From Escherichia phage BEK2, in sequence record MN158206.1: a stretch of DNA of 46,880 nt. The stretch is one strand, 5' to 3'. Below the pieces are notes generated by a model that was given only the letters and a program-made list of their open reading frames with translations, ran no database searches and was not told the DNA's origin. Shown piece after piece: positions 10,502-44,193 of the stretch. How positions within the stretch are numbered: the stretch's first letter is position 1; each line of letters starts with the position of its first letter. The translations under genes and the position numbers were made by a program.

Positions 10502-10545
10502 ATAGCACTTTTTGCTAAAGCACTTATCCAATCTTCCTGTATAGT
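10502..10545 (+). promoter_or_regulatory. box promoter cassette P2
   Basis: ATAGCACTTTTTGCTAAA (10502-10519), 22-nt spacer, TATAGT (10540-10545), then leader CATCGAAACGAAA (10551-10563). Confidence 0.65.
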
Positions 10546-24944: not shown

Positions 24945-24988
24945 ATAGCACGAATTGCTAAAACAAGGTGGGATAGCTGAGGTATAGT
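24945..24988 (+). promoter_or_regulatory. box promoter cassette P7
   Basis: ATAGCACGAATTGCTAAA (24945-24962) directly after the stop TAA, 22-nt spacer, TATAGT (24983-24988). Confidence 0.65.
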
Positions 24989-29182: not shown

Positions 29183-29204
29183 AAAAAACCTCCCGAAGGA
29201 GGTT
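29183..29204 (-). terminator. rho-independent terminator (UUCG loop on minus strand)
   Basis: Minus strand: AACCTCC-TTCG-GGAGGTT followed by T6. Overlaps the primase stop codon. Confidence 0.8.
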
Positions 29205-30126
29205 AGCTATTCAATAAGTCACTTGCCTTATATATCTTCTTCCTGATGCCGCTCTTGAATGAGTATTCATCATTTGGTATTACCACGTCAATACACCTGT
29301 CATCCGCAACGCAAAGCAACTCTCTGTCAAGTTTGCACGCCACTCTCAGCTTTTGGTTTCTAAGCGCGTAAGCAACCATTTCCATGTTGTAACTGGAGTA
29401 GCAAACAAGCACACAGCGGTTGCCAGTAGCAATGTGAACACGATAGCCGTCAATGAGATTATCGACCAGATAAGCGAACTCACCATCCTTAAGGGAACCA
29501 ATAACAGCCACAGACTGGCGAGTGTAATCTTTTGCGGCATAACTAACATCTCCTTCTTCATTGATAAACATTACATTGCACATTTCTTCTGATATACCAT
29601 CACCATAAGCCATGAAGCAAGGTATTGCATGGATTAATTCACCTGATTTTGCTCTACCAACATCAAAGCCAAACTCGCTATAGATTCCCTCGTATATACT
29701 GAGTGGGGTTGATTCTACTCTTTCCGTCCTTCCCATTATCTCTAAGCATCTTTCGTGGTCAATTTGAGCGCCCATTTTGTAGAGCTGGGTTCTTGATGCT
29801 TGCTTGTTTGCCTTGTTGACAACCTCAACCGGGATAAGGTTTAGCCACTCACCGAGAACGTCGATACACTCACTGAATGACTCGCCTCGCAGCTTCTGGA
29901 CCCAGAGAATTCCATCCCCTGAGCCGCACTGGTTGCAGATAATGCCACCATCACCATCTTCGCTAACCTTGTTTGTCCATCTCGCGCGATCGTTTCCACC
30001 GCAATAGATGCATGGCTTGTGCTTCTTGGTCTGGAAAAACTTAGGATCTGCGCCGCAGATGTTTATAAGCGCCTTATCCCACAGTCCGCGCATTCTTGGT
30101 AGAACCTCTTTCTTATCGTAGTGCAT
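29203..30126 (-). CDS. DNA primase (zinc-ribbon type)
   Basis: N-terminal CIYCGG...CNQCGSGDG zinc-binding pattern as in P4-alpha/T1-type primases. Lies in the replication gene neighbourhood. Confidence 0.6.
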   Translation of the reverse strand: MHYDKKEVLPRMRGLWDKALINICGADPKFFQTKKHKPCIYCGGNDRARWTNKVSEDGDGGIICNQCGSGDGILWVQKLRGESFSECIDVLGEWLNLIPVEVVNKANKQASRTQLYKMGAQIDHERCLEIMGRTERVESTPLSIYEGIYSEFGFDVGRAKSGELIHAIPCFMAYGDGISEEMCNVMFINEEGDVSYAAKDYTRQSVAVIGSLKDGEFAYLVDNLIDGYRVHIATGNRCVLVCYSSYNMEMVAYALRNQKLRVACKLDRELLCVADDRCIDVVIPNDEYSFKSGIRKKIYKASDLLNS

Positions 30127-33028: not shown

Positions 33029-33444
33029 AAATTACAGACAAAGTTGACTACATTGAGTTTTACCATGGCCCGGTTAAGTCTTGCCCGAAAGAGGATGACG
33101 AGCAAATCTTTTGCTCTGATTGGGTTAAGTATAACTATCCAGAGATGGTATTTTTCCACTGCGTGAATGAGGGTAAGAAAACCATTGGTCAGGCAAGAAA
33201 AGACCAGGCCAAGGGGCTTCTCAAAGGCGTATCAGACTGTATGTTTCTTATTCCCGAATCTATCCGAGGAAAGTACCCTTTCGGAGCCATAGAGCTAAAG
33301 AGGGCTGGGAAGACGCAGGCTAGTCCGGTCAGCGACGAGCAGAAGTCATTCCTTAAAAGCGTAAGAGAATCAGGAGGTTTTGCCGGGGTAGCCTACGGTC
33401 GCGAGGGTTTTCTAGCGGCGTTTAAAGAAATGATTTCAAAATAG
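33025..33444 (+). CDS. VRR-NUC domain nuclease
   Basis: GVSDCMF...GAIELKRAG has the D...ExK arrangement. ATGA overlap with the helicase gene. Confidence 0.7.
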   Translation: MKITDKVDYIEFYHGPVKSCPKEDDEQIFCSDWVKYNYPEMVFFHCVNEGKKTIGQARKDQAKGLLKGVSDCMFLIPESIRGKYPFGAIELKRAGKTQASPVSDEQKSFLKSVRESGGFAGVAYGREGFLAAFKEMISK

Positions 33445-33484
33445 CACGAATTGCTAAAGACGTTTCGTTGAGTTGGTGTATTAT
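33441..33484 (+). promoter_or_regulatory. box promoter cassette P12
   Basis: ATAGCACGAATTGCTAAA (33441-33458; stop TAG inside), 22-nt spacer, TGtATTAT/TATTAT (33479-33484), leader CATCGAAACGAAACG (33490-33504). Confidence 0.7.
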
Positions 33485-35781: not shown

Positions 35782-35825
35782 ATAGCACTTTTTGCCTAAA
35801 GCATGCCGTAGAAATGCGGCATAAT
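35782..35825 (+). promoter_or_regulatory. box promoter cassette P13 (1-nt insertion variant)
   Basis: ATAGCACTTTTTGCCTAAA (35782-35800) directly after the stop TAA, an ATGCCG/CGGCAT hairpin in the spacer, CATAAT (35820-35825). Confidence 0.5.
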
Positions 35826-37499: not shown

Positions 37500-37543
37500 A
37501 TAATAACAAAAGCCCACAAGGGGCTTTTAACAAAAGGTGCTAT
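37500..37543 (-). promoter_or_regulatory. box promoter cassette P14 with nested terminator
   Basis: Minus strand: ATAGCACCTTTTGTTAAA (37543-37526) right after the stop TAA, a 22-nt spacer holding a hairpin plus T-run, TATTAT (37505-37500). Confidence 0.55.
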
Positions 37544-37879
37544 TTAAGAGAATAACTCGTCGTCCGTCATTGTTCCTATATTCATCATCTCTTTTATGTA
37601 CTTGCTCTCATACCCGCTAAGTGCCTCGAAATTGAAATCAAACGGCCTCTTCAGGCTACCCTTGCTAACAAACTCACCACACTTACCATTAATGTAACCC
37701 GCACTCAACATCTTCGCGCAAAACTCCTTTGAAGCAGCGCTGCAAAATTCCCTATGCGACAACCCGGCGGCTTTGCTAAATCTCTGAGAGTCCTTGTGTT
37801 GGTAGATGAATCGCGCCAAATGCTGCCGTGTGAAATATGAATACGACTCGCAGAACTTAAATATATCTAGCAGGAACAT
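37544..37879 (-). CDS. hypothetical protein
   Basis: 111 aa. Start lies 4 nt after the stop of the P-loop gene (GGGGTG SD). Confidence 0.6.
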   Translation of the reverse strand: MFLLDIFKFCESYSYFTRQHLARFIYQHKDSQRFSKAAGLSHREFCSAASKEFCAKMLSAGYINGKCGEFVSKGSLKRPFDFNFEALSGYESKYIKEMMNIGTMTDDELFS

Positions 37880-37882
37880 TCA

Positions 37883-39466
37883 TCACCCCAGCAGTCGCGG
37901 ATTAATGTAAACCTTATCACCAATCAGGCACGTGTAGTTTTTCTCGTCAAGCATTGGCAGTAGGTGATCTTTAATCTTCGTCATTACCCCAGCCTGAGCC
38001 TCGAACGGCTTAACCTTTCGAGCAGCTTCATATAATGAGCGAATACCAACTACACCCTTGCCGTTCTTTCCTTGCTTGATCAGGATATCAATCAGCTTAT
38101 TCATCTCGGCATTATCGCCAGCGTGACCAGCGGCGTTAGCAGATGAAAGATAAGTCTTGCTAAGTTCATTGAACATAATTACAGCTTCTTGCATGGTATC
38201 AAGCTCAATCTCTCTTGACTTCTGTGGACTCCCGCCATTTGGGTTAAACCAGTTACGCACAGTGTGAAGAACCGCCGCAATCCTGATGGCCTGCTTATCG
38301 AACTTACCCAGGGCGCCGCGCAACATTGTGTGGGAATACTTCCCGCCGTCCGCAAGGTGAGGCTCCATCTCCTGACGTGCGCGGTTAAGATACTTCATTG
38401 CTGAGTTGCTCACTGTCAACTTAACATCTTGCTCATTCATTATTTCATGAACTAATCGGAAATAGTCGGCCTTGAGTCCACCATCAATTGGCTCATATGT
38501 TGAATCTCCATTCTCATCAACAAACACACGCTCGCCCAAAAATGACTTTTCACGCACAAGCAGAAATCGCTCCGACACACCGATACCACGTGCGCCAGCG
38601 TTCATGATTGCATTGATTGTTTCGTCTTGCGCAATTACTGAGATGCAACCCATAGCAACGAAGCTCATGTTGTTCTCTGCGTTCGCACGCGCAATGGACA
38701 CGTTACCAGCATCCCATGCCTTCAGTACAAGTTCGCTGTTCGTCTTCTTGGATCCGTCACCGTACGTCATACCTAGCAGTGAGTTGACGCTCGTCGCCTC
38801 ATCAGAGATAACCGCGAAGTTACCTTGTCGGTTGTTTATTCGTGCCAGACCTTCCGGCGTGGTGTCGGATACAGGGAAAACGATATCACAAAGTTTCTCG
38901 AGCTTTTCCTCAAGCTCCTCCTTCTCCTCAAAAAGAGAAGCCATCTCTGAAGGAGATTTCTCCTGCTTCATCTCTTTGGATAATGCAGATAGTTTGGCCA
39001 TGATCTTCTTGCGCTCACGCTTGCGAACTTCATTAAGACGCTCAGTCTCAGCAATCATTGGAGCAATCGATAGCGAGTTAATTGCTGATTTACCAGTTGA
39101 TGGCGGCTGGCTTGTCACGACGTAGAGCGCAGTTGGTTGTTGGGTTCCATGATACTCAACTGTAAATCGGCCCAGCATCGCAGCGGAAATACACCCCAGG
39201 AAGTGCATGTATGCGGACGACTCAGGAAACTGAACCGAACGAGCTATGTTAGATGACAGTTTGCCAACAACATCAATATCATTACCTAGTGAGATTACGG
39301 GATACTTGTCATTAGCTGCATCAATCTCGACCGGAGCCTTCCAAAATGATTGAGAATGACGATAGCCATTGGCATTGATAGCGACGCGCAGGGGTGGGAG
39401 GTTGTCCGCAGCAGCAATTGCCATAACCTGTTCAACAGACAGTTTATCTTCGTTGAAATCAAACAT
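37883..39466 (-). CDS. P-loop NTPase, DUF3987/YfjI-like (candidate replication initiator/helicase-type protein)
   Basis: 527 aa. Walker A SQPPSTGKSA, Walker B NFAVISDEAT. N-terminal 42 aa and C-terminal ~70 aa are paralogous to ORF 42798-43322. Family name is from recollection and needs an HMM search. Confidence 0.6.
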   Translation of the reverse strand: MFDFNEDKLSVEQVMAIAAADNLPPLRVAINANGYRHSQSFWKAPVEIDAANDKYPVISLGNDIDVVGKLSSNIARSVQFPESSAYMHFLGCISAAMLGRFTVEYHGTQQPTALYVVTSQPPSTGKSAINSLSIAPMIAETERLNEVRKRERKKIMAKLSALSKEMKQEKSPSEMASLFEEKEELEEKLEKLCDIVFPVSDTTPEGLARINNRQGNFAVISDEATSVNSLLGMTYGDGSKKTNSELVLKAWDAGNVSIARANAENNMSFVAMGCISVIAQDETINAIMNAGARGIGVSERFLLVREKSFLGERVFVDENGDSTYEPIDGGLKADYFRLVHEIMNEQDVKLTVSNSAMKYLNRARQEMEPHLADGGKYSHTMLRGALGKFDKQAIRIAAVLHTVRNWFNPNGGSPQKSREIELDTMQEAVIMFNELSKTYLSSANAAGHAGDNAEMNKLIDILIKQGKNGKGVVGIRSLYEAARKVKPFEAQAGVMTKIKDHLLPMLDEKNYTCLIGDKVYINPRLLG

Positions 39467-39496
39467 TACTTCTCTCCGTATTGTTTCTGAGCGGAC

Positions 39497-39539
39497 ATTA
39501 TATCAACGACCGCTTATAATTCATTATCAATTTTGCTAT
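39497..39539 (-). promoter_or_regulatory. box promoter cassette P15 (variant box)
   Basis: Minus strand: ATAGCAAAATTGATAAT (39539-39523) right after the stop TAA. TTGATA is followed by a 22-nt spacer and TATAAT (39502-39497). Confidence 0.55.
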
Positions 39540-39893
39540 TTACAGGTATTGCGCCTCAAAATGGTACGTCTGGCAAAGAGTGTAAAATCCAACATCCTCG
39601 CTGCGGTAAAGCTGCCAAGCATTACCATCCTCATCGTAAATGTAACCGGCATTTTGCCCTATCCCGGCATGCATAGATACCTGGTAGCGCTTTCCTTCTT
39701 TAAAGTCTTTTTTAACTCCTGACTTGTGGTTAACCTTTGTGCAGTAAAGCGTCTTAGTCTTGACGTACTTACCGCGCTCTTCGAGGTTAACCCATTTGCC
39801 ATCTTTCTTAATCTGCTCCACACCATCTTTAACGCGAGCTTTGTAGAGTACGTTTTCGTTGCTGATCCAGCTTTTAGTAATCGTAGTGGTCAT
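39540..39893 (-). CDS. hypothetical protein (FKEGKRY...YDEDG family)
   Basis: 117 aa, AAGGA SD, first gene after P16. Confidence 0.6.
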   Translation of the reverse strand: MTTTITKSWISNENVLYKARVKDGVEQIKKDGKWVNLEERGKYVKTKTLYCTKVNHKSGVKKDFKEGKRYQVSMHAGIGQNAGYIYDEDGNAWQLYRSEDVGFYTLCQTYHFEAQYL

Positions 39894-39929
39894 TTTGTTT
39901 TCCTTTTCGTGTTTCGTTTCGATGAGATT

Positions 39930-39973
39930 AATATACAGGAAAAGCCCCGAAGGGCTTTAGCAATTAGTGCTAT
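39930..39973 (-). promoter_or_regulatory. box promoter cassette P16 with nested terminator
   Basis: Minus strand: ATAGCACTAATTGCTAAA (39973-39956), a 22-nt spacer containing AGCCC-TTCG-GGGCT, TATATT (39935-39930), leader CATCGAAACGAAAC. The box encodes NSTNC plus the stop of the upstream gene. Confidence 0.65.
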
Positions 39974-40208
39974 TTATTTCCTTGAGTCCAAGTGGCGTTA
40001 TCACTACCTTATACCAAGTTCCAATCTCTGGCTTATTTACATTATATGCCAGCTCTACATAACCTAGCCGAAATAGTTTTGGTATACCTCTGGATGACTT
40101 GCCACAATCACGAATCCTGCCGCGATTAAGGTCATAGCTTATTTGATGAATCTCTCCATTATGAATACAGTGGAGGGTTTTTATTGCGGATTCAGAAATT
40201 TTAATCAC
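39957..40208 (-). CDS. hypothetical protein
   Basis: 83 aa. GTG start in a GTGA overlap with the upstream micro-ORF. C-terminus NSTNC is encoded by the box. Confidence 0.5.
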   Translation of the reverse strand: MIKISESAIKTLHCIHNGEIHQISYDLNRGRIRDCGKSSRGIPKLFRLGYVELAYNVNKPEIGTWYKVVITPLGLKEINSTNC

Positions 40209-40375
40209 TTATTTTCACCGTTAATATTCTTCGCATTCTCTATCGCCTTGAGCATAATTTCATGACTCTCAAGCAAGTCCTCGCGGAACCAGTCGCCGCA
40301 AGGCCAGCCCTTACCAGACATCTTTGACACAACTTCAAAATCCCAATAACTCAAATCTGAAGGTAATAGCATCAT
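40205..40375 (-). CDS. hypothetical micro-protein
   Basis: 56 aa (MMLLPSDLSYWDFEVV...), translated by hand. ATGA and GTGA overlaps with both neighbours. Confidence 0.45.
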   Translation of the reverse strand: MMLLPSDLSYWDFEVVSKMSGKGWPCGDWFREDLLESHEIMLKAIENAKNINGENK

Positions 40376-40611
40376 TTCACCTCATCAAAAGTTGCAATCC
40401 CAGGAATAAACATTCCAACCTTCCATCCTGCAATGGCAATCCAGCCAGAATCGTTCTTGTGCGGTCGCTCAGCGCCTTTAATTAACCATTCGTTCGGGAT
40501 TGTCTTGCCGTTAATGATTAGTGGCTCAGCGTCGTACATAGAGCCTTTAACGAACGGTGTCAAAACCTTCTTATCGGTACTGGTAATAACGTTAGTGCAG
40601 CGAATTTTCAT
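40372..40611 (-). CDS. hypothetical protein
   Basis: 79 aa, ATGA coupling at both ends. Confidence 0.55.
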   Translation of the reverse strand: MKIRCTNVITSTDKKVLTPFVKGSMYDAEPLIINGKTIPNEWLIKGAERPHKNDSGWIAIAGWKVGMFIPGIATFDEVK

Positions 40612-40781
40612 TGCACCACCTCAAACTCACCAGGGTGAATAACAAGCGGTTTAGATGTGCCATCCATTATTACCACCCTACCATCTCCGCAATCCATGAA
40701 TACATCGTAAACTTCGCCAATCTCAATGCCGTAATAATCTGTTGTGTAAATCGTGTCAAACTTAACAATCTTAATTTTCAT
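40608..40781 (-). CDS. hypothetical micro-protein
   Basis: 57 aa (MKIKIVKFDTIYTTDYYGIEIGEVYDVF...), translated by hand. ATGA overlap downstream. Confidence 0.45.
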   Translation of the reverse strand: MKIKIVKFDTIYTTDYYGIEIGEVYDVFMDCGDGRVVIMDGTSKPLVIHPGEFEVVQ

Positions 40782-40791
40782 ATCTCAATCC

Positions 40792-40968
40792 TCAAAATGG
40801 AATGCAGTCTTGGCAGCCAAGTCCATCGCAGCACAGGAATTCATCCTCTGACTGGAATTGCTTAGCCAGATCAATATCTATTCGTCCGCGGACAACCATT
40901 TCGGTGTAATCTTCGTTAAGACCAATCAGTGCGCATTCGTGACGTAACTTATCTTTATCAATCTTCAT
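40792..40968 (-). CDS. hypothetical micro-protein (Cys-rich C-terminus)
   Basis: 58 aa (MKIDKDKLRHECALIG...LCCDGLGCQDCIPF), translated by hand. Weak SD. Confidence 0.4.
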   Translation of the reverse strand: MKIDKDKLRHECALIGLNEDYTEMVVRGRIDIDLAKQFQSEDEFLCCDGLGCQDCIPF

Positions 40969-41022
40969 ATCTATACCATCGTTTGGTTTGTGCCGGATGT
41001 CGTCCGGCGGCGATATAATTTA

Positions 41023-41262
41023 TTAGTGCTGCTTTGCTGTGTAAAACTTCCAGTCATCCTGGACTTCAATCAATGTCCCGTTGGCTATCATTGCACTAAG
41101 GCTATCTTCAGTAAGGAGAGTTCTCAGCCAGGTATATTTGTTTCCTACGCGAACATTGCCACAGTTATTAAACACGCTACCGTTTACCAGCATCATCTCA
41201 ACGCCTTTTGAGCCAGGCTTAGTGAAGAGGCGTTTTTCTGTTTTAGTGGTCTGGATGCTCAT
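41023..41262 (-). CDS. hypothetical protein
   Basis: 79 aa, GGAG SD, first gene after P17. Confidence 0.55.
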   Translation of the reverse strand: MSIQTTKTEKRLFTKPGSKGVEMMLVNGSVFNNCGNVRVGNKYTWLRTLLTEDSLSAMIANGTLIEVQDDWKFYTAKQH

Positions 41263-41300
41263 TTTTATCTCCGGTGTGTTCGTTTCGTTTCGATGAAGTA

Positions 41301-41344
41301 ACTATACGCCATCCGTGGCGGTGAGTTTTAGCAATTCGTGCTAT
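41301..41344 (-). promoter_or_regulatory. box promoter cassette P17
   Basis: Minus strand: ATAGCACGAATTGCTAAA (41344-41327), a 22-nt spacer with a CGCCA/TGGCG hairpin, TATAGT (41306-41301), leader CATCGAAACGAAACG. The box encodes NSTNC plus a stop. Confidence 0.7.
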
Positions 41345-41633
41345 TGCGTTCGATGTATGCATTAATTTCTTCAGCAGTTTCCATTGCGGAGCGGAAAGCG
41401 CCTTTTGCGTGGCGAGAATCTCGGAATGACTGGAAAAATTTACGAGCAACGTTTGCGAACATCGCGCCAGTGATACGAGAATCACCGAAATTAGTTTCGA
41501 TTGAGTTACTGATGCCATCACGGAACTCATTCTCAGCCATGAACATCTCAGCCATTTCTGCGGTGGCGAAAAGGTCTGCCAGTGCTTGCATGTTTTCGTG
41601 GTCAGCTTTAGTGAAAAGGTTCATGTTAATCAT
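41328..41633 (-). CDS. hypothetical protein
   Basis: 101 aa, helical/acidic, GGAG SD. C-terminus NSTNC is encoded by the box. Confidence 0.6.
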   Translation of the reverse strand: MINMNLFTKADHENMQALADLFATAEMAEMFMAENEFRDGISNSIETNFGDSRITGAMFANVARKFFQSFRDSRHAKGAFRSAMETAEEINAYIERNSTNC

Positions 41634-41670
41634 TTTTGTGTCTCCGTGAGTTCTTCGTTTCGATGGAGTA

Positions 41671-41715
41671 ATAATAGCGAATCACACCCGATCGGTCATT
41701 AGCAAAAAGTGCTAT
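41671..41715 (-). promoter_or_regulatory. box promoter cassette P18
   Basis: Minus strand: ATAGCACTTTTTGCTAAT (41715-41698), 23-nt spacer, TATTAT (41676-41671), leader CCATCGAAACGAAG. Confidence 0.6.
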
Positions 41716-41728
41716 TCGTTAGATTTAT

Positions 41729-41816
41729 GGATTGTTGCAGATATTGCAATGATTCACATAATTATTGCACATACAGCAATATTGCTTCAGATGCAATGAT
41801 GTTTTTGATTGTTGCG
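41729..41816. repeat. cluster of ATTGCA/TGCAAT-type short repeats and palindromes
   Basis: GATTGTTGC x2 (41730, 41807), TGCAATGAT x2 (41745, 41792), palindromes ATTGCAAT (41744-41751) and GCAATATTGC (41776-41785). Non-coding. Confidence 0.7.
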
Positions 41817-41905
41817 AAAAGTGAAATGAAGTGGGGAGTGAGCGAATGAAAGATGGATGGACTACCATACAAGTTGATTTTGATTCTGGCTGGGCCATTT
41901 TCACG

Positions 41906-42231
41906 CCTACACGTAACGCCAGTAGCGCGATGTAAGCCAAGGCCAATCGTTACGTGAGTTACGCGCAGCTACGCCCGGACTTACACTATAAGTGCTTAAT
42001 ATATATATATATCTTCTTTCTATTATTATTATTAATATTAATATTATTGTATGTAAGTCGTGTAACGTGGGTCCTAGCGATATCTATATGTTTTTTCCTA
42101 TCAGAATACATTATTGCTATTTTATGTGGGATTTAGCCAGTATGGGGCCATTGCACTCATTTGCCTCGTTACACGCACGACACGAAACTACATTGAGCTA
42201 TAGCTGGGCTGGTGTGCCATTTCGCGTAACG
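41906..42231. repeat. non-coding iteron/AT-rich region B (homolog of 23321-23645)
   Basis: CGTAACG/CGTTACG copies at 41912, 41948, 41958, 42062, 42167, 42225. (TA)n at 41998-42012 and (TAT)n at 42021-42048. A 42-nt block (42189-42230) is 36/42 identical to 23603-23644. Confidence 0.8.
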
Positions 42232-42258
42232 ACCCCCAAAAGTTACCAAAAATTACAC

Positions 42259-42287
42259 TTGACTACATGTGTAAGTCGGGATATGAT
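42259..42287 (+). promoter_or_regulatory. sigma70-type promoter
   Basis: TTGACT (42259-42264), 17-nt spacer, TATGAT (42282-42287). No palindromic box. Confidence 0.65.
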
Positions 42288-42318
42288 GGACTCAACTTAA
42301 ACGAGAGGAGTGATAGAG

Positions 42319-42798
42319 ATGAACGAGAAGGTAACATTAGGCCAAGTGATTCGTGAGATGGTAAAGGCGGCGCTTAAGTCTGAGGATAAGCAGATCAGCG
42401 TGACACTCAACAAGATTGAGAGCCTTATTGGCGCAGAGGAGGGTGGTCTACATAAGCTTAAGAGCTCATACATCTATAATACAACGGCTCGCATGCCTGA
42501 GTTGAGAGATGCCGGACTGAAGGCGACCCACCATTATGATGAGGATGAGGGTGATAGTGAGTTTGGTGAAACCACTCTGGCTGGGGAAAAGAAGTTAGTT
42601 ATCAAGCTGATTCCTGGAGCTGCAAACATTGGAATCAGGAAGAAGACCAACGACGCGATCAAGGATGAGGCAATCAATGGGTTCAAGGCCAAGATTTCGA
42701 AGGTGATGCCAGACCTCTCTGAGTATGAGGGTGAAGCGCTTGCAGCCGCCATGAAGGCCATTAAGGATTACCGTTTAATTATTGAGGAGATTAAGTAA
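42319..42798 (+). CDS. hypothetical acidic protein
   Basis: 159 aa from ATG 42319 (GAGAGGAG SD). TAATG coupling to the truncated P-loop paralog. Confidence 0.6.
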   Translation: MNEKVTLGQVIREMVKAALKSEDKQISVTLNKIESLIGAEEGGLHKLKSSYIYNTTARMPELRDAGLKATHHYDEDEGDSEFGETTLAGEKKLVIKLIPGAANIGIRKKTNDAIKDEAINGFKAKISKVMPDLSEYEGEALAAAMKAIKDYRLIIEEIK

Positions 42799-43322
42799 TG
42801 TTTGACTTTAACGAGGATAAACTGACAGAAGAGCAGGTTATGCAAGTAGCCATGGCAGATAGCCTTCCACCACTACGTGTTGCAATCAGCGCTAACGGGT
42901 ATCGACAGTCAACGGCGTTTTGGGGTTCGATTGATACCTCAGAGGTGTATAGTGGTGATGAGCTTGGTGTACTGATTAAAATCATCAGGAAAATGGGAGT
43001 TAACGGCAAAGGAGTTGTCGGCATTAGGTCTCTATACGAAGGTGCTCGCAAGGTTAAGCCCTTTGAGGGTAGCAATGGAATCATGGCGCGTATTAAGGAT
43101 GAGCTCATCCCAGCTCTAGAGGAAATTAATATCGCTTGCCTAATTGGAGATAAGATTTATGTCCACCCAGCTATCATTGATGAGTACTGGCAACCCAACT
43201 TCAAAACTTACGAAGGTGAGCACCCCAGTAGACTACCACACCACTTGCGATACAGTGACGATGAGATAATAAAGGCGATTCGGTTCTACTGGGAAGCTAA
43301 ATCACTGCTTAGCGGCGGATAG
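42798..43322 (+). CDS. domain-deleted paralog of the 37883-39466 P-loop protein (N- and C-terminal modules only)
   Basis: First 42 aa are 32/42 identical to the full-length protein. NGKGVVGIRSLYEGARKVKPFE matches its C-terminal module. No Walker motifs. Unique 45-aa tail. Confidence 0.7.
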   Translation: MFDFNEDKLTEEQVMQVAMADSLPPLRVAISANGYRQSTAFWGSIDTSEVYSGDELGVLIKIIRKMGVNGKGVVGIRSLYEGARKVKPFEGSNGIMARIKDELIPALEEINIACLIGDKIYVHPAIIDEYWQPNFKTYEGEHPSRLPHHLRYSDDEIIKAIRFYWEAKSLLSGG

Positions 43323-43362
43323 CACGAATTGCTAAAAGGGGATTCATCCTGACTGGTATAAT
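43319..43362 (+). promoter_or_regulatory. box promoter cassette P19
   Basis: ATAGCACGAATTGCTAAA (43319-43336; stop TAG inside), 22-nt spacer, TGgTATAAT (-10 at 43357-43362). Confidence 0.7.
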
Positions 43363-44149: not shown

Positions 44150-44193
44150 ATAGCACTTTTTGCCTAACCCTCTTCGGAGGGTTTTGTTATAGT
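44150..44193 (+). promoter_or_regulatory. box promoter cassette P20 with nested terminator
   Basis: ATAGCACTTTTTGCCTAA (44150-44167), CCCTC-TTCG-GAGGG-TTTT (44168-44185), TATAGT (44188-44193), leader CATCGAAAGCAAAC. Confidence 0.6.

Follow-up and report, generated by a model that had tools for sequence, protein, structure and literature searches.

A core-less paralog of a DUF3987 helicase in T1-like phages is linked to a DUF7174 gene and varies in concert with the resident helicase

The window analyzed here, a whole stretch of 46,880 nucleotides from an Escherichia phage (BEK2, MN158206.1), encodes a 174-residue protein (42798-43322, plus strand; phrog_7327, no Pfam family), hereinafter the short form, that is a paralog of the two ends of the 527-residue DUF3987 family helicase of the same phage (37883-39466, minus strand; phrog_2373), lacks the ATPase core of the latter, and varies among phage lineages in concert with the helicase that it accompanies. 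In the comparisons below, the window sequence is labelled BEK3 (MN158207.1, 46,884 bp; Drexlerviridae, Braunvirinae), window positions being the record coordinates minus 4. Both open reading frames (ORFs) are annotated as "hypothetical protein" in the BEK3 record, whereas JeanPiccard (Bas02), a better annotated relative, has "putative helicase" for the long ORF and a hypothetical protein for the other. The PHROG 7327 family has been catalogued but is uncharacterized, and none of the papers searched describes its relation to the helicase. The gene for the short form is the second in a two-gene cassette that starts with a DUF7174 gene and is located next to an element resembling a replication origin. 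We tentatively propose, with a probability of roughly 0.4, that the short form is a mimic of the helicase termini that modulates the recruitment of the helicase at an origin specified by DUF7174, with a competitive role in timing or limiting this process.

Two terminal modules of an MCM-like helicase

The long ORF matches the Pfam profile PF13148 (DUF3987) over residues 81-430 (profile positions 3-349 of 364; E = 5.7e-41; score 141 bits, cutoff 27), contains both the Walker A (PPSTGKSA) and the Walker B (AVISDEAT) motifs, and is predicted to adopt an AAA+ fold of the minichromosome maintenance (MCM) type followed by a C-terminal winged-helix (WH) domain. Residues Q120, P121, P122, G125, K126, S221 and E223 are invariant in 60 helicase homologs, and D222 is nearly so. 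A winged helix-turn-helix at the C-terminus has been described for DUF3987 proteins (PMC4889955), and ATP-dependent DNA unwinding has been shown for AgaPH, a distant relative from the same family (PMC11724360). Judging from the Pfam match, the Walker motifs and the predicted fold, the long ORF is a bona fide and ordinary member of the DUF3987/superfamily 6 (SF6) family of MCM-like AAA+ replicative helicases. It is present in 924 phage records, full length in 901 of them, and clustering at 90% identity places 640 members in a single cluster.

In the AlphaFold2 (AF2) model of the helicase, the first 45 residues (39332-39466, minus strand), which we denote the N module, form three short helices (11-21, 25-33, 36-41) and carry the motif PLRVAINANGYR..SFW that is kept even in helicases of 72% identity. 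The C-terminal WH module (residues 448-527; 37886-38125, minus strand) consists of helix 451-468, strand 472-474, helices 475-482 and 494-508, and strands 512-515 and 518-521. This alpha1-beta1-alpha2-alpha3-beta2-beta3 order, which is shared by the C module of the short form, together with structural matches to solved WH domains, identifies the module as a winged helix.

The short form consists of these two modules and a tail of its own. Its N module (residues 1-45; 42798-42932, plus strand) is homologous to helicase residues 1-45, with 32 of the first 42 residues identical and the same three helices in the AF2 model, and its WH (residues 52-127; 42951-43178, plus strand) is homologous to helicase residues 448-526. 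The pairwise BLASTP comparison yields two high-scoring segment pairs, one between helicase residues 1-73 and short-form residues 1-69 (55% identity, E = 7e-21) and the other between residues 448-526 and 51-127 (59% identity, E = 1e-29). The short form has no Pfam match and its alignment with the helicase covers only helicase residues 1-73 and 448-526, which leaves no AAA+ ATPase core; the short ORF is a paralog of the helicase termini and cannot be a helicase itself. The remainder (residues 128-174; 43179-43319, plus strand) is modelled by AF2 as a disordered linker (137-148) and a terminal amphipathic helix (154-171), the motif of which, ..EEV..A.E.Y+..K.L, is retained in short forms below 35% identity. 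A tblastn search of 50,697 phage records with the tail sequence detected it exclusively in short-form genes (79 records, one place in each).

The match to the phrog_7327 profile, which is annotated as being of unknown function, spans almost the whole protein (residues 1-173 on profile positions 1-178 of 179; E = 1.3e-76). The AF2 model of the short form (pLDDT, the predicted local distance difference test score, 79.8) contains the three N-terminal helices (11-21, 25-33, 36-41), an alpha-beta-alpha-alpha-beta-beta WH (55-122), the linker and the tail helix. The N module and the WH are predicted to pack as one compact body, and the separately predicted 140-residue protein of phage DTL superimposes on it over the whole length with a template modelling (TM) score of 0.92. 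The WH is mildly basic (charge +3.8 in the helicase and +1.8 in the short form), and its canonical recognition helix is acidic and contains proline (IMARIKDELIPALEE). Neither protein sequence, nor a profile of the short form or of DUF7174, had a significant match in the PDB, NCBIfam and PADLOC contained no match for the short form, and a BFVD fold search returned family members only.

In a metagenomic, eukaryote-like protein, P0271 (633 aa), MTAEEALAAAEAEGLPLIRSAASSSGYKHV is repeated five times in tandem ahead of an AP2-like unit, and these copies are similar to the short-form profile at positions 9-38 (E = 3e-7). The similarity hints that the N module (LTEEQVM..A..D.LPPLRVAI.ANGYR) could be related to a widespread small unit preceding AP2-type DNA-binding domains.

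A preliminary description of this locus had delimited both ORFs and the Walker motifs as given above, counted the same 32 identities, restricted the relationship to the two ends, with a core of about 400 residues missing (helicase residues ~46-447 in our alignment), and suggested testing a DUF3987/primase-helicase-like assignment and looking for a C-terminal WH, and in all these respects it agrees with our results; the possibility it raised that the shared segments are unstructured linkers conflicts with the models, in which both modules are predicted to fold confidently. Its estimate of the unique tail, 45 residues, is two short of the 47 we count, and its figure of about 70% DNA identity is true of the N module (70%), the C module being 63% identical. 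The identity of the paralogs is 38-41% at third codon positions versus 66-86% at positions 1 and 2, which indicates that, as had been suggested, this is an old duplication, with both copies maintained by purifying selection, and not an assembly artefact.

Concerted divergence, constraint and distribution

Within the BEK3 group, the comparison of a short form with its own and with foreign helicases has no power, the helicase termini being 92-93% identical. We therefore relied on two additional lineages that possess both genes, L030 (helicase 83% and short form 35% identical to those of BEK3) and L069 (72% and 29%, respectively), with L068, for which the helicase is partial, alongside. For each pair of lineages, we took the positions at which the two helicases differ in their termini and scored whether a short form has the residue of its own helicase (concerted) or that of the other (swapped). 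Concerted sites outnumber swapped ones 11 to 1 for BEK3 and L030 (p = 0.006), 18 to 0 for BEK3 and L069 (p = 8e-6), and 14 to 0 for L030 and L069 (p = 1e-4). The residues common to both proteins of a lineage include ANGYRQ/H in the N module and NGKGVVGIR and CLIGDKxY in the WH for BEK3; ANGMRY and, in the WH, AGKGFVSLR and CMIxxRVY for L030; and ANGYSAARSFW and, in the WH, LIGEKVFFNP for L069. The matrix of N-module identities is dominated by its diagonal, with values of 0.71, 0.58 and 0.89 for the own helicase and 0.42-0.58 for the others; the two N modules of L069 are identical at 40 of 45 positions, and the short-form N modules of L068 and L069 are 89-93% identical to the helicase N module of that lineage.

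The tails of all short forms are homologous and all short forms are preceded by DUF7174, and therefore the short gene has a single origin. Between L068 and L069, the ratio of nonsynonymous to synonymous substitution rates (dN/dS) in the short-form N module is 0.05, and the proportion of nonsynonymous differences (pN) in the rest of the protein is 0.48. The dS of the short gene in this pair is 1.3-2.3, above the value of 0.45 for the helicase, and therefore the cassette has been exchanged between phages, with the N module still matching the helicase of the lineage.

Recent gene conversion between the paralogs was considered as the source of the matching and rejected: throughout the 14 genomes, the identity of the paralogs at third codon positions is no more than 0.29-0.49, and their longest stretch of perfect agreement ranges from 11 to 24 nt. 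In ANGMRY, AGKGFVSLR and the N modules of L069, the paralogs use different codons, including different serine and arginine codon families, and the proportion of synonymous differences (pS) between paralogs is 0.88-0.90. Whatever the route, the pattern of shared residues indicates that selection holds the short-form N module, and to a lesser extent the WH, to the version present in the resident helicase.

Among the 13 phages with both genes, dN/dS is ~0.03 in the helicase, compared to ~0.23 in the short form, at equal pS (~0.6-0.65). On these estimates, the short form is functional but accessory, its constraint being approximately 8-fold weaker than that on the helicase. Its alleles, nearly all of which encode 173-177 residues, form more than 120 clusters at 90% identity, a diversity that is attributable to this weaker constraint as opposed to demonstrable positive selection. 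Strong positive selection was examined as a source of the diversity and is not supported by the mean dN/dS of 0.23.

The full-length short form was found in only 112 phage records, which are essentially the same as the 129 records with a helicase at least 90% identical to that of BEK3. A profile search of 1.84 billion representative proteins produced 48 matches, all from the same group of phages, which include ~10 clusters at 50% identity (164-185 residues), all with the N module, the WH and the terminal amphipathic helix. The search for more divergent pairs was mostly unsuccessful: the majority of metagenomic contigs were too short, metagenome and IMG/VR scans gave back the phages already known, and GenBank contains no L030-like or L069-like short forms. 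Phage ES lacks the short form, and so does L022, a closer relative (helicase 93% identical) that retains DUF7174. The survey of related phages for the pair, which the preliminary description had recommended, thus recovers it in the BEK3 group, L030 and L069 and shows that the short gene is limited to one clade, some members of which have lost or disrupted it.

The lesions differ among the four of 15 genomes with a disrupted short gene: TAG at codon 141 in DTL, TGA at codon 140 in the 12210I family (43 records), TAA at codon 37 in CEB_EC3a, and TGA together with a frameshift in IME542. The nonsense codons of DTL (L004, 8671-9195) and the 12210I family (L006, 10001-10528) are independent and adjacent, lie in the linker just before the tail helix, and are followed by an intact, in-frame tail. 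Coincidence could explain this, as could read-through isoforms or repeated selection for loss of the tail.

The DUF7174 cassette and the origin-like element

The DUF7174 gene (42310-42798, plus strand, with the GenBank start at the ATG at 42319; phrog_4841, Pfam DUF7174 7e-48) is directly upstream of the short gene in every lineage, the most divergent ones included, and the short gene is always the second in this two-gene cassette. At the BEK3 junction, the DUF7174 stop codon overlaps the ATG of the short form (TAATG), and a GAGGAG Shine-Dalgarno sequence is located 8 nt upstream, inside the 3' end of DUF7174. A scan for promoter consensus places a putative sigma-70-like promoter (TTGACT-17-TATGAT, 10 of 12 positions; 42259-42287, plus strand) before the cassette. 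No relative of DUF7174 was detected in the PDB, NCBIfam or PADLOC, and a literature search yielded nothing relevant.

DUF7174 is highly allelic, with 32-90% identity among phages whose helicases are >91% identical; conserved segments occur in its N- and C-terminal parts (VTLGEVIR.MV..AL, LKSSYIYNT..RM.EL and FK.R.LK..P......GDE..GA..AI..Y.E.IKE.K), and the middle is variable.

A 676-nt non-coding region separates the cassette from the leftward operon that contains the helicase. The right half of this region harbors an AT-rich block (~41995-42055; ~60 nt, 92-94% AT) flanked on both sides, within 320 nt, by five copies of CGTTAC/GTAACG (plus GTGTAA); genome-wide, this hexamer occurs 24 times, compared to 13.9 expected. 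We denote the repeats iterons and the entire segment (41913-42231) an origin-like element on account of its architecture, repeats flanking an AT block near replication genes, which is the layout of origins of the SaPI (Staphylococcus aureus pathogenicity island) Rep type. The layout recurs in all 18 loci with enough sequence (L002, L004-L007, L010, L012-L014, L016, L022, L030, L032, L036, L038, L067-L069), with an AT block (82-94% AT) 297-371 nt upstream of DUF7174 and 4-7 copies of a 6-7-mer. The GC skew of the window mirrors gene orientation only and is of no help in placing the origin.

The iteron sequence differs among lineages: GTATAC in JeanPiccard and L022, GTTACA/TAGATA in L005 and L007, ATAACG in L010 and L014, GGTTACA in L030, CGCGTAA in L036, GGAATA in L038, and ACTACG in L068 and L069. 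BEK3, DTL and L012, with DUF7174 proteins 79-88% identical, have the same motif, and so do JeanPiccard and L022, with DUF7174 proteins 97% identical. The helicases of BEK3 and JeanPiccard are 98.5% identical, with one residue difference in the WH, yet their iterons are CGTTAC and GTATAC, respectively; iteron specificity accordingly does not co-vary with the helicase WH, as it does in SaPI Rep-type systems. L011 and L012 combine BEK3-type DUF7174 and flanking DNA with short forms only 48-50% identical to that of BEK3, and L022 has JeanPiccard-type iterons with no short form. In this comparison, the iteron motif follows the DUF7174 allele and not the helicase or the short form. Such a pattern would be expected of an initiator-origin specificity cassette and speaks against the shared helicase modules as readers of the iterons.

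The short gene and the helicase gene are divergent in the window and 3331 nt apart, in accord with the ~3.3 kb of the preliminary description; the inverted bracketing of the intervening region that it emphasized is lineage-specific, given that in L068 and L069 the helicase block is on the same strand as the short gene. In these two contigs (L068 1-4800 and L069 3494-10001), the helicase block together with the lysis cassette has the opposite orientation to that in BEK3.

The left half of the intergenic region contains, at 41725-41830, six motifs with TTGCA/TGCAA (ATTGTTGCA, ATATTGCAAT, TTATTGCACA, AGCAATATTGCT, GATGCAATGA and ATTGTTGCG), and is 87-93% conserved in all relatives from the BEK3 group, whatever the DUF7174 type. 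This half is likely to be the regulatory region of the leftward, helicase-containing operon. In that operon, a 111-residue protein gene (37544-37879, minus strand; phrog_2794) is always located directly downstream of the helicase, even in Webervirus (L028), and a 117-residue protein gene (39540-39893, minus strand) is always directly upstream; NCBIfam and PADLOC contain no match for these neighbors. In Klebsiella phage KL (L028, NC_049838.1; 7001-7288), only the last ~96 helicase codons are left, unannotated, upstream of the conserved 110-residue protein gene, which represents either an assembly error or, in a viable Webervirus, a natural loss of helicase sequence. The other replication and recombination genes of the BEK3 genome encode a separate Zn-ribbon primase (29203-30126), an SF2 helicase, a single-stranded DNA-binding protein, an Erf-like recombinase and an exonuclease; no DNA polymerase is encoded among its genes.

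A palindrome, TTAGCAA-N4-GTGCTAT (arms TAGCA...TGCTA), is dispersed over the window, with 18 sites at up to 3 mismatches compared to 0.26 expected (including 10502-10518, 24945-24961, 33441-33457, 35782-35798, 37527-37543, 41328-41344, 41699-41715, 43319-43335 and 44150-44166). Most of the copies are located exactly at gene ends, and one overlaps the stop codon of the short ORF. After several of them comes a promoter-like -10 box, such as TGGTATAAT at 43354-43362, and the motif is kept in all related lineages. The palindrome is probably a regulator site or a module-boundary element.

Possible roles of the short form and relation to known systems

MCM-clade helicases make contacts with the origin and between protomers through their WH and C-terminal domains, as in SaPI Rep (PMC9371898). 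Under the explanation that we favor, the AAA+ motor (approximately residues 46-447) would have been cleanly excised from a helicase copy, leaving the N-terminal three-helix unit and the C-terminal WH packed as a compact body, and the new tail with its conserved amphipathic end helix would provide a second interface. The short form would be made early, with its translation coupled to that of DUF7174, from a cassette that abuts the origin-like element. DUF7174 would read the iterons as the origin protein, and the helicase would reach the origin and assemble there via its terminal modules. The short form would then take over the protein contact(s) of these modules on a partner that diverges with the lineage. 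This partner might be DUF7174 (its conserved part), the Zn-ribbon primase or, as the domain-swapped C-terminal domains in SaPI Rep suggest (PMC9371898), a neighboring helicase protomer (its ATPase tier). By such competition, the short form might time or limit helicase loading. A competitive, limiting role is favored over that of a required loader, given how easily the gene is lost and that truncated alleles are retained.

Several observations weigh against this explanation. The concerted signal comes from three lineages, two of them known only from metagenomes, and the comparisons share lineages. A 24-nt exact match spans the wing of L069 (LIGEKVFF) and may be a micro-conversion, and an ancient conversion from helicase to short gene, followed by synonymous saturation, is a possible source of the matching. 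The short-form WH drops to 22-30% identity to the helicase WH (L016, JeanPiccard), which is hard to square with strict mimicry. Most Drexlerviridae have no short gene; L036 and L038, with helicases ~84% identical, have DUF7174 and no short gene, and this absence from relatives, together with the disruption in four of the 15 genomes, implies that any role of the short form is dispensable. The co-variation of iterons and DUF7174 is confounded by physical linkage, and the element, assigned as a putative origin by architecture only, would also fit an operator or promoter region.

A related but rather doubtful possibility is that the cassette and the iteron/AT element constitute a T1-like replication-initiation module in which DUF7174 represents a new family of iteron-specific initiators and the short form is a loader or gatekeeper that joins or gates the assembly of the helicase ring, being kept compatible by co-evolution at the protein level. 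A positive role, in which the short form contacts DUF7174 through the tail helix and docks on the helicase ring through the N module and WH, like a seventh subunit or a ring-opener, and by this bridge promotes loading, appears unlikely. It draws on the same coupling evidence as the explanation that we favor; the tail helix, conserved in all short forms and absent from the helicase, is what would be expected of a second, distinct interface, and loaders evolved from paralogs of replication proteins are established (DnaC, DnaA). However, L022, L036 and L038, which have a related helicase and DUF7174, manage without the short form, and propagated phages, the 43-record family among them, carry nonsense alleles in which the tail or the N module is missing, whereas a required loader should not be given up so easily.

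The short form might alternatively be an anti-defense decoy, produced early and in abundance, that soaks up or blinds a host sensor of the helicase terminal modules. A decoy has to follow its model, which fits the own-lineage matching, and an early, accessory, patchy gene that is approximately 8-fold less constrained, rich in alleles and exchanged as part of a cassette is typical of counter-defense genes; furthermore, phage helicases can trigger defense, as in the case of retron Eco11 with UvsW and D10 (SF2, a different helicase class; PMC12746101). Nevertheless, we regard this role as rather improbable: PADLOC models of defense and anti-defense gave no match, the literature search yielded no link to defense for DUF3987 helicases and no helicase escape in Drexlerviridae, dN/dS is well below 1 with no positively selected sites demonstrated, and the strict translational coupling to DUF7174 beside the origin-like element points to replication.

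The preliminary description had raised the idea that the shared modules bind the iterons, the helicase being an initiator and the short form a copy-control or titration factor. MCM-clade helicases of the SaPI Rep type do read iterons through the C-terminal WH and load themselves (PMC9371898), the WH modules are mildly basic, and the short gene adjoins the iterons. This proposal fares poorly and is now highly improbable, given that the iterons change completely between phages with WH modules identical or one residue apart (BEK3 and JeanPiccard) and follow the DUF7174 allele, the same iterons occur with very different short forms (L011, L012) or none (L022), and the recognition helix is acidic and contains proline. 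The more general suggestion of a regulator, competitor or adaptor survives, for a core-less protein that shares the helicase modules, but as an accessory gene and not as a core copy-control element. That the short form is merely a decaying, functionless remnant of a helicase duplication, with its likeness kept by occasional gene conversion, would agree with the disrupted copies in four of 15 genomes, the absence of the gene in relatives and the possible 24-nt conversion tract in L069, but is very unlikely in view of dN/dS values of 0.23 overall and 0.05 for the N module at saturated synonymous sites, hundreds of intact alleles of ~174 residues, an architecture and a tail helix kept to below 30% identity, and two modules confidently predicted to fold.

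If the short form is the helicase-terminus mimic that we propose, it represents a natural case of a mimic with a gene of its own that is obliged to change along with its parent, and the co-varying residues mark which surfaces of DUF3987 helicase termini matter; if the decoy interpretation were true, it would amount to a new principle of counter-defense. Among coliphages and Klebsiella phages, the T1-like group (Drexlerviridae) is one of the commonest, and a recent re-annotation still reports no origin or iterons for T1-family replication (PMC11447400). The locus described here makes initiation in this family testable by offering a candidate origin with iterons that differ among lineages, DUF7174 as the candidate specificity protein, an MCM-like helicase and a paralog of the latter that lacks the motor.

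Among known systems, the DUF3987/SF6 MCM-like helicases (PMC4889955; AgaPH, PMC11724360; BcMCM, PMC2715239) resemble the long ORF in the Pfam match, the Walker A and B motifs, the AAA+ fold, the C-terminal WH and the separate Zn-ribbon primase; the short ORF differs from them in having no ATPase core. In our literature search, we found no description of a core-less paralog that accompanies DUF3987/SF6 helicases or of a truncated helicase paralog. In the self-loading initiator-helicases Rep of SaPIs and Cch of SCCmec (staphylococcal cassette chromosome mec), iteron specificity is set by the WH of the helicase itself (PMC9371898, PMC7581432), whereas here it follows a separate gene, DUF7174; SaPIs have no WH-only paralog. 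The likeness of the shared WH to the WH domains of Orc1/Cdc6/ORC and of MCM C-termini is at the fold level, with a sequence identity of only 6-15%.

The closest functional parallels are motor-less derivatives that keep the binding modules of their parents and are usually negative modulators, namely OBPC (UL8.5) versus UL9 of herpes simplex virus 1, E8^E2 versus E2 of papillomaviruses, 17kT versus large T of polyomaviruses, and gp4B versus gp4A of phage T7. Like the short form, these proteins have interaction modules in common with the full-length protein and lack its catalytic part. However, they are isoforms that arise via internal starts or splicing and are identical to the parent in sequence, whereas the short form is the product of a separate, anciently diverged gene. 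Unlike such isoforms, it keeps both termini of its parent, carries a new tail, belongs to another operon, and follows the parent by concerted evolution.

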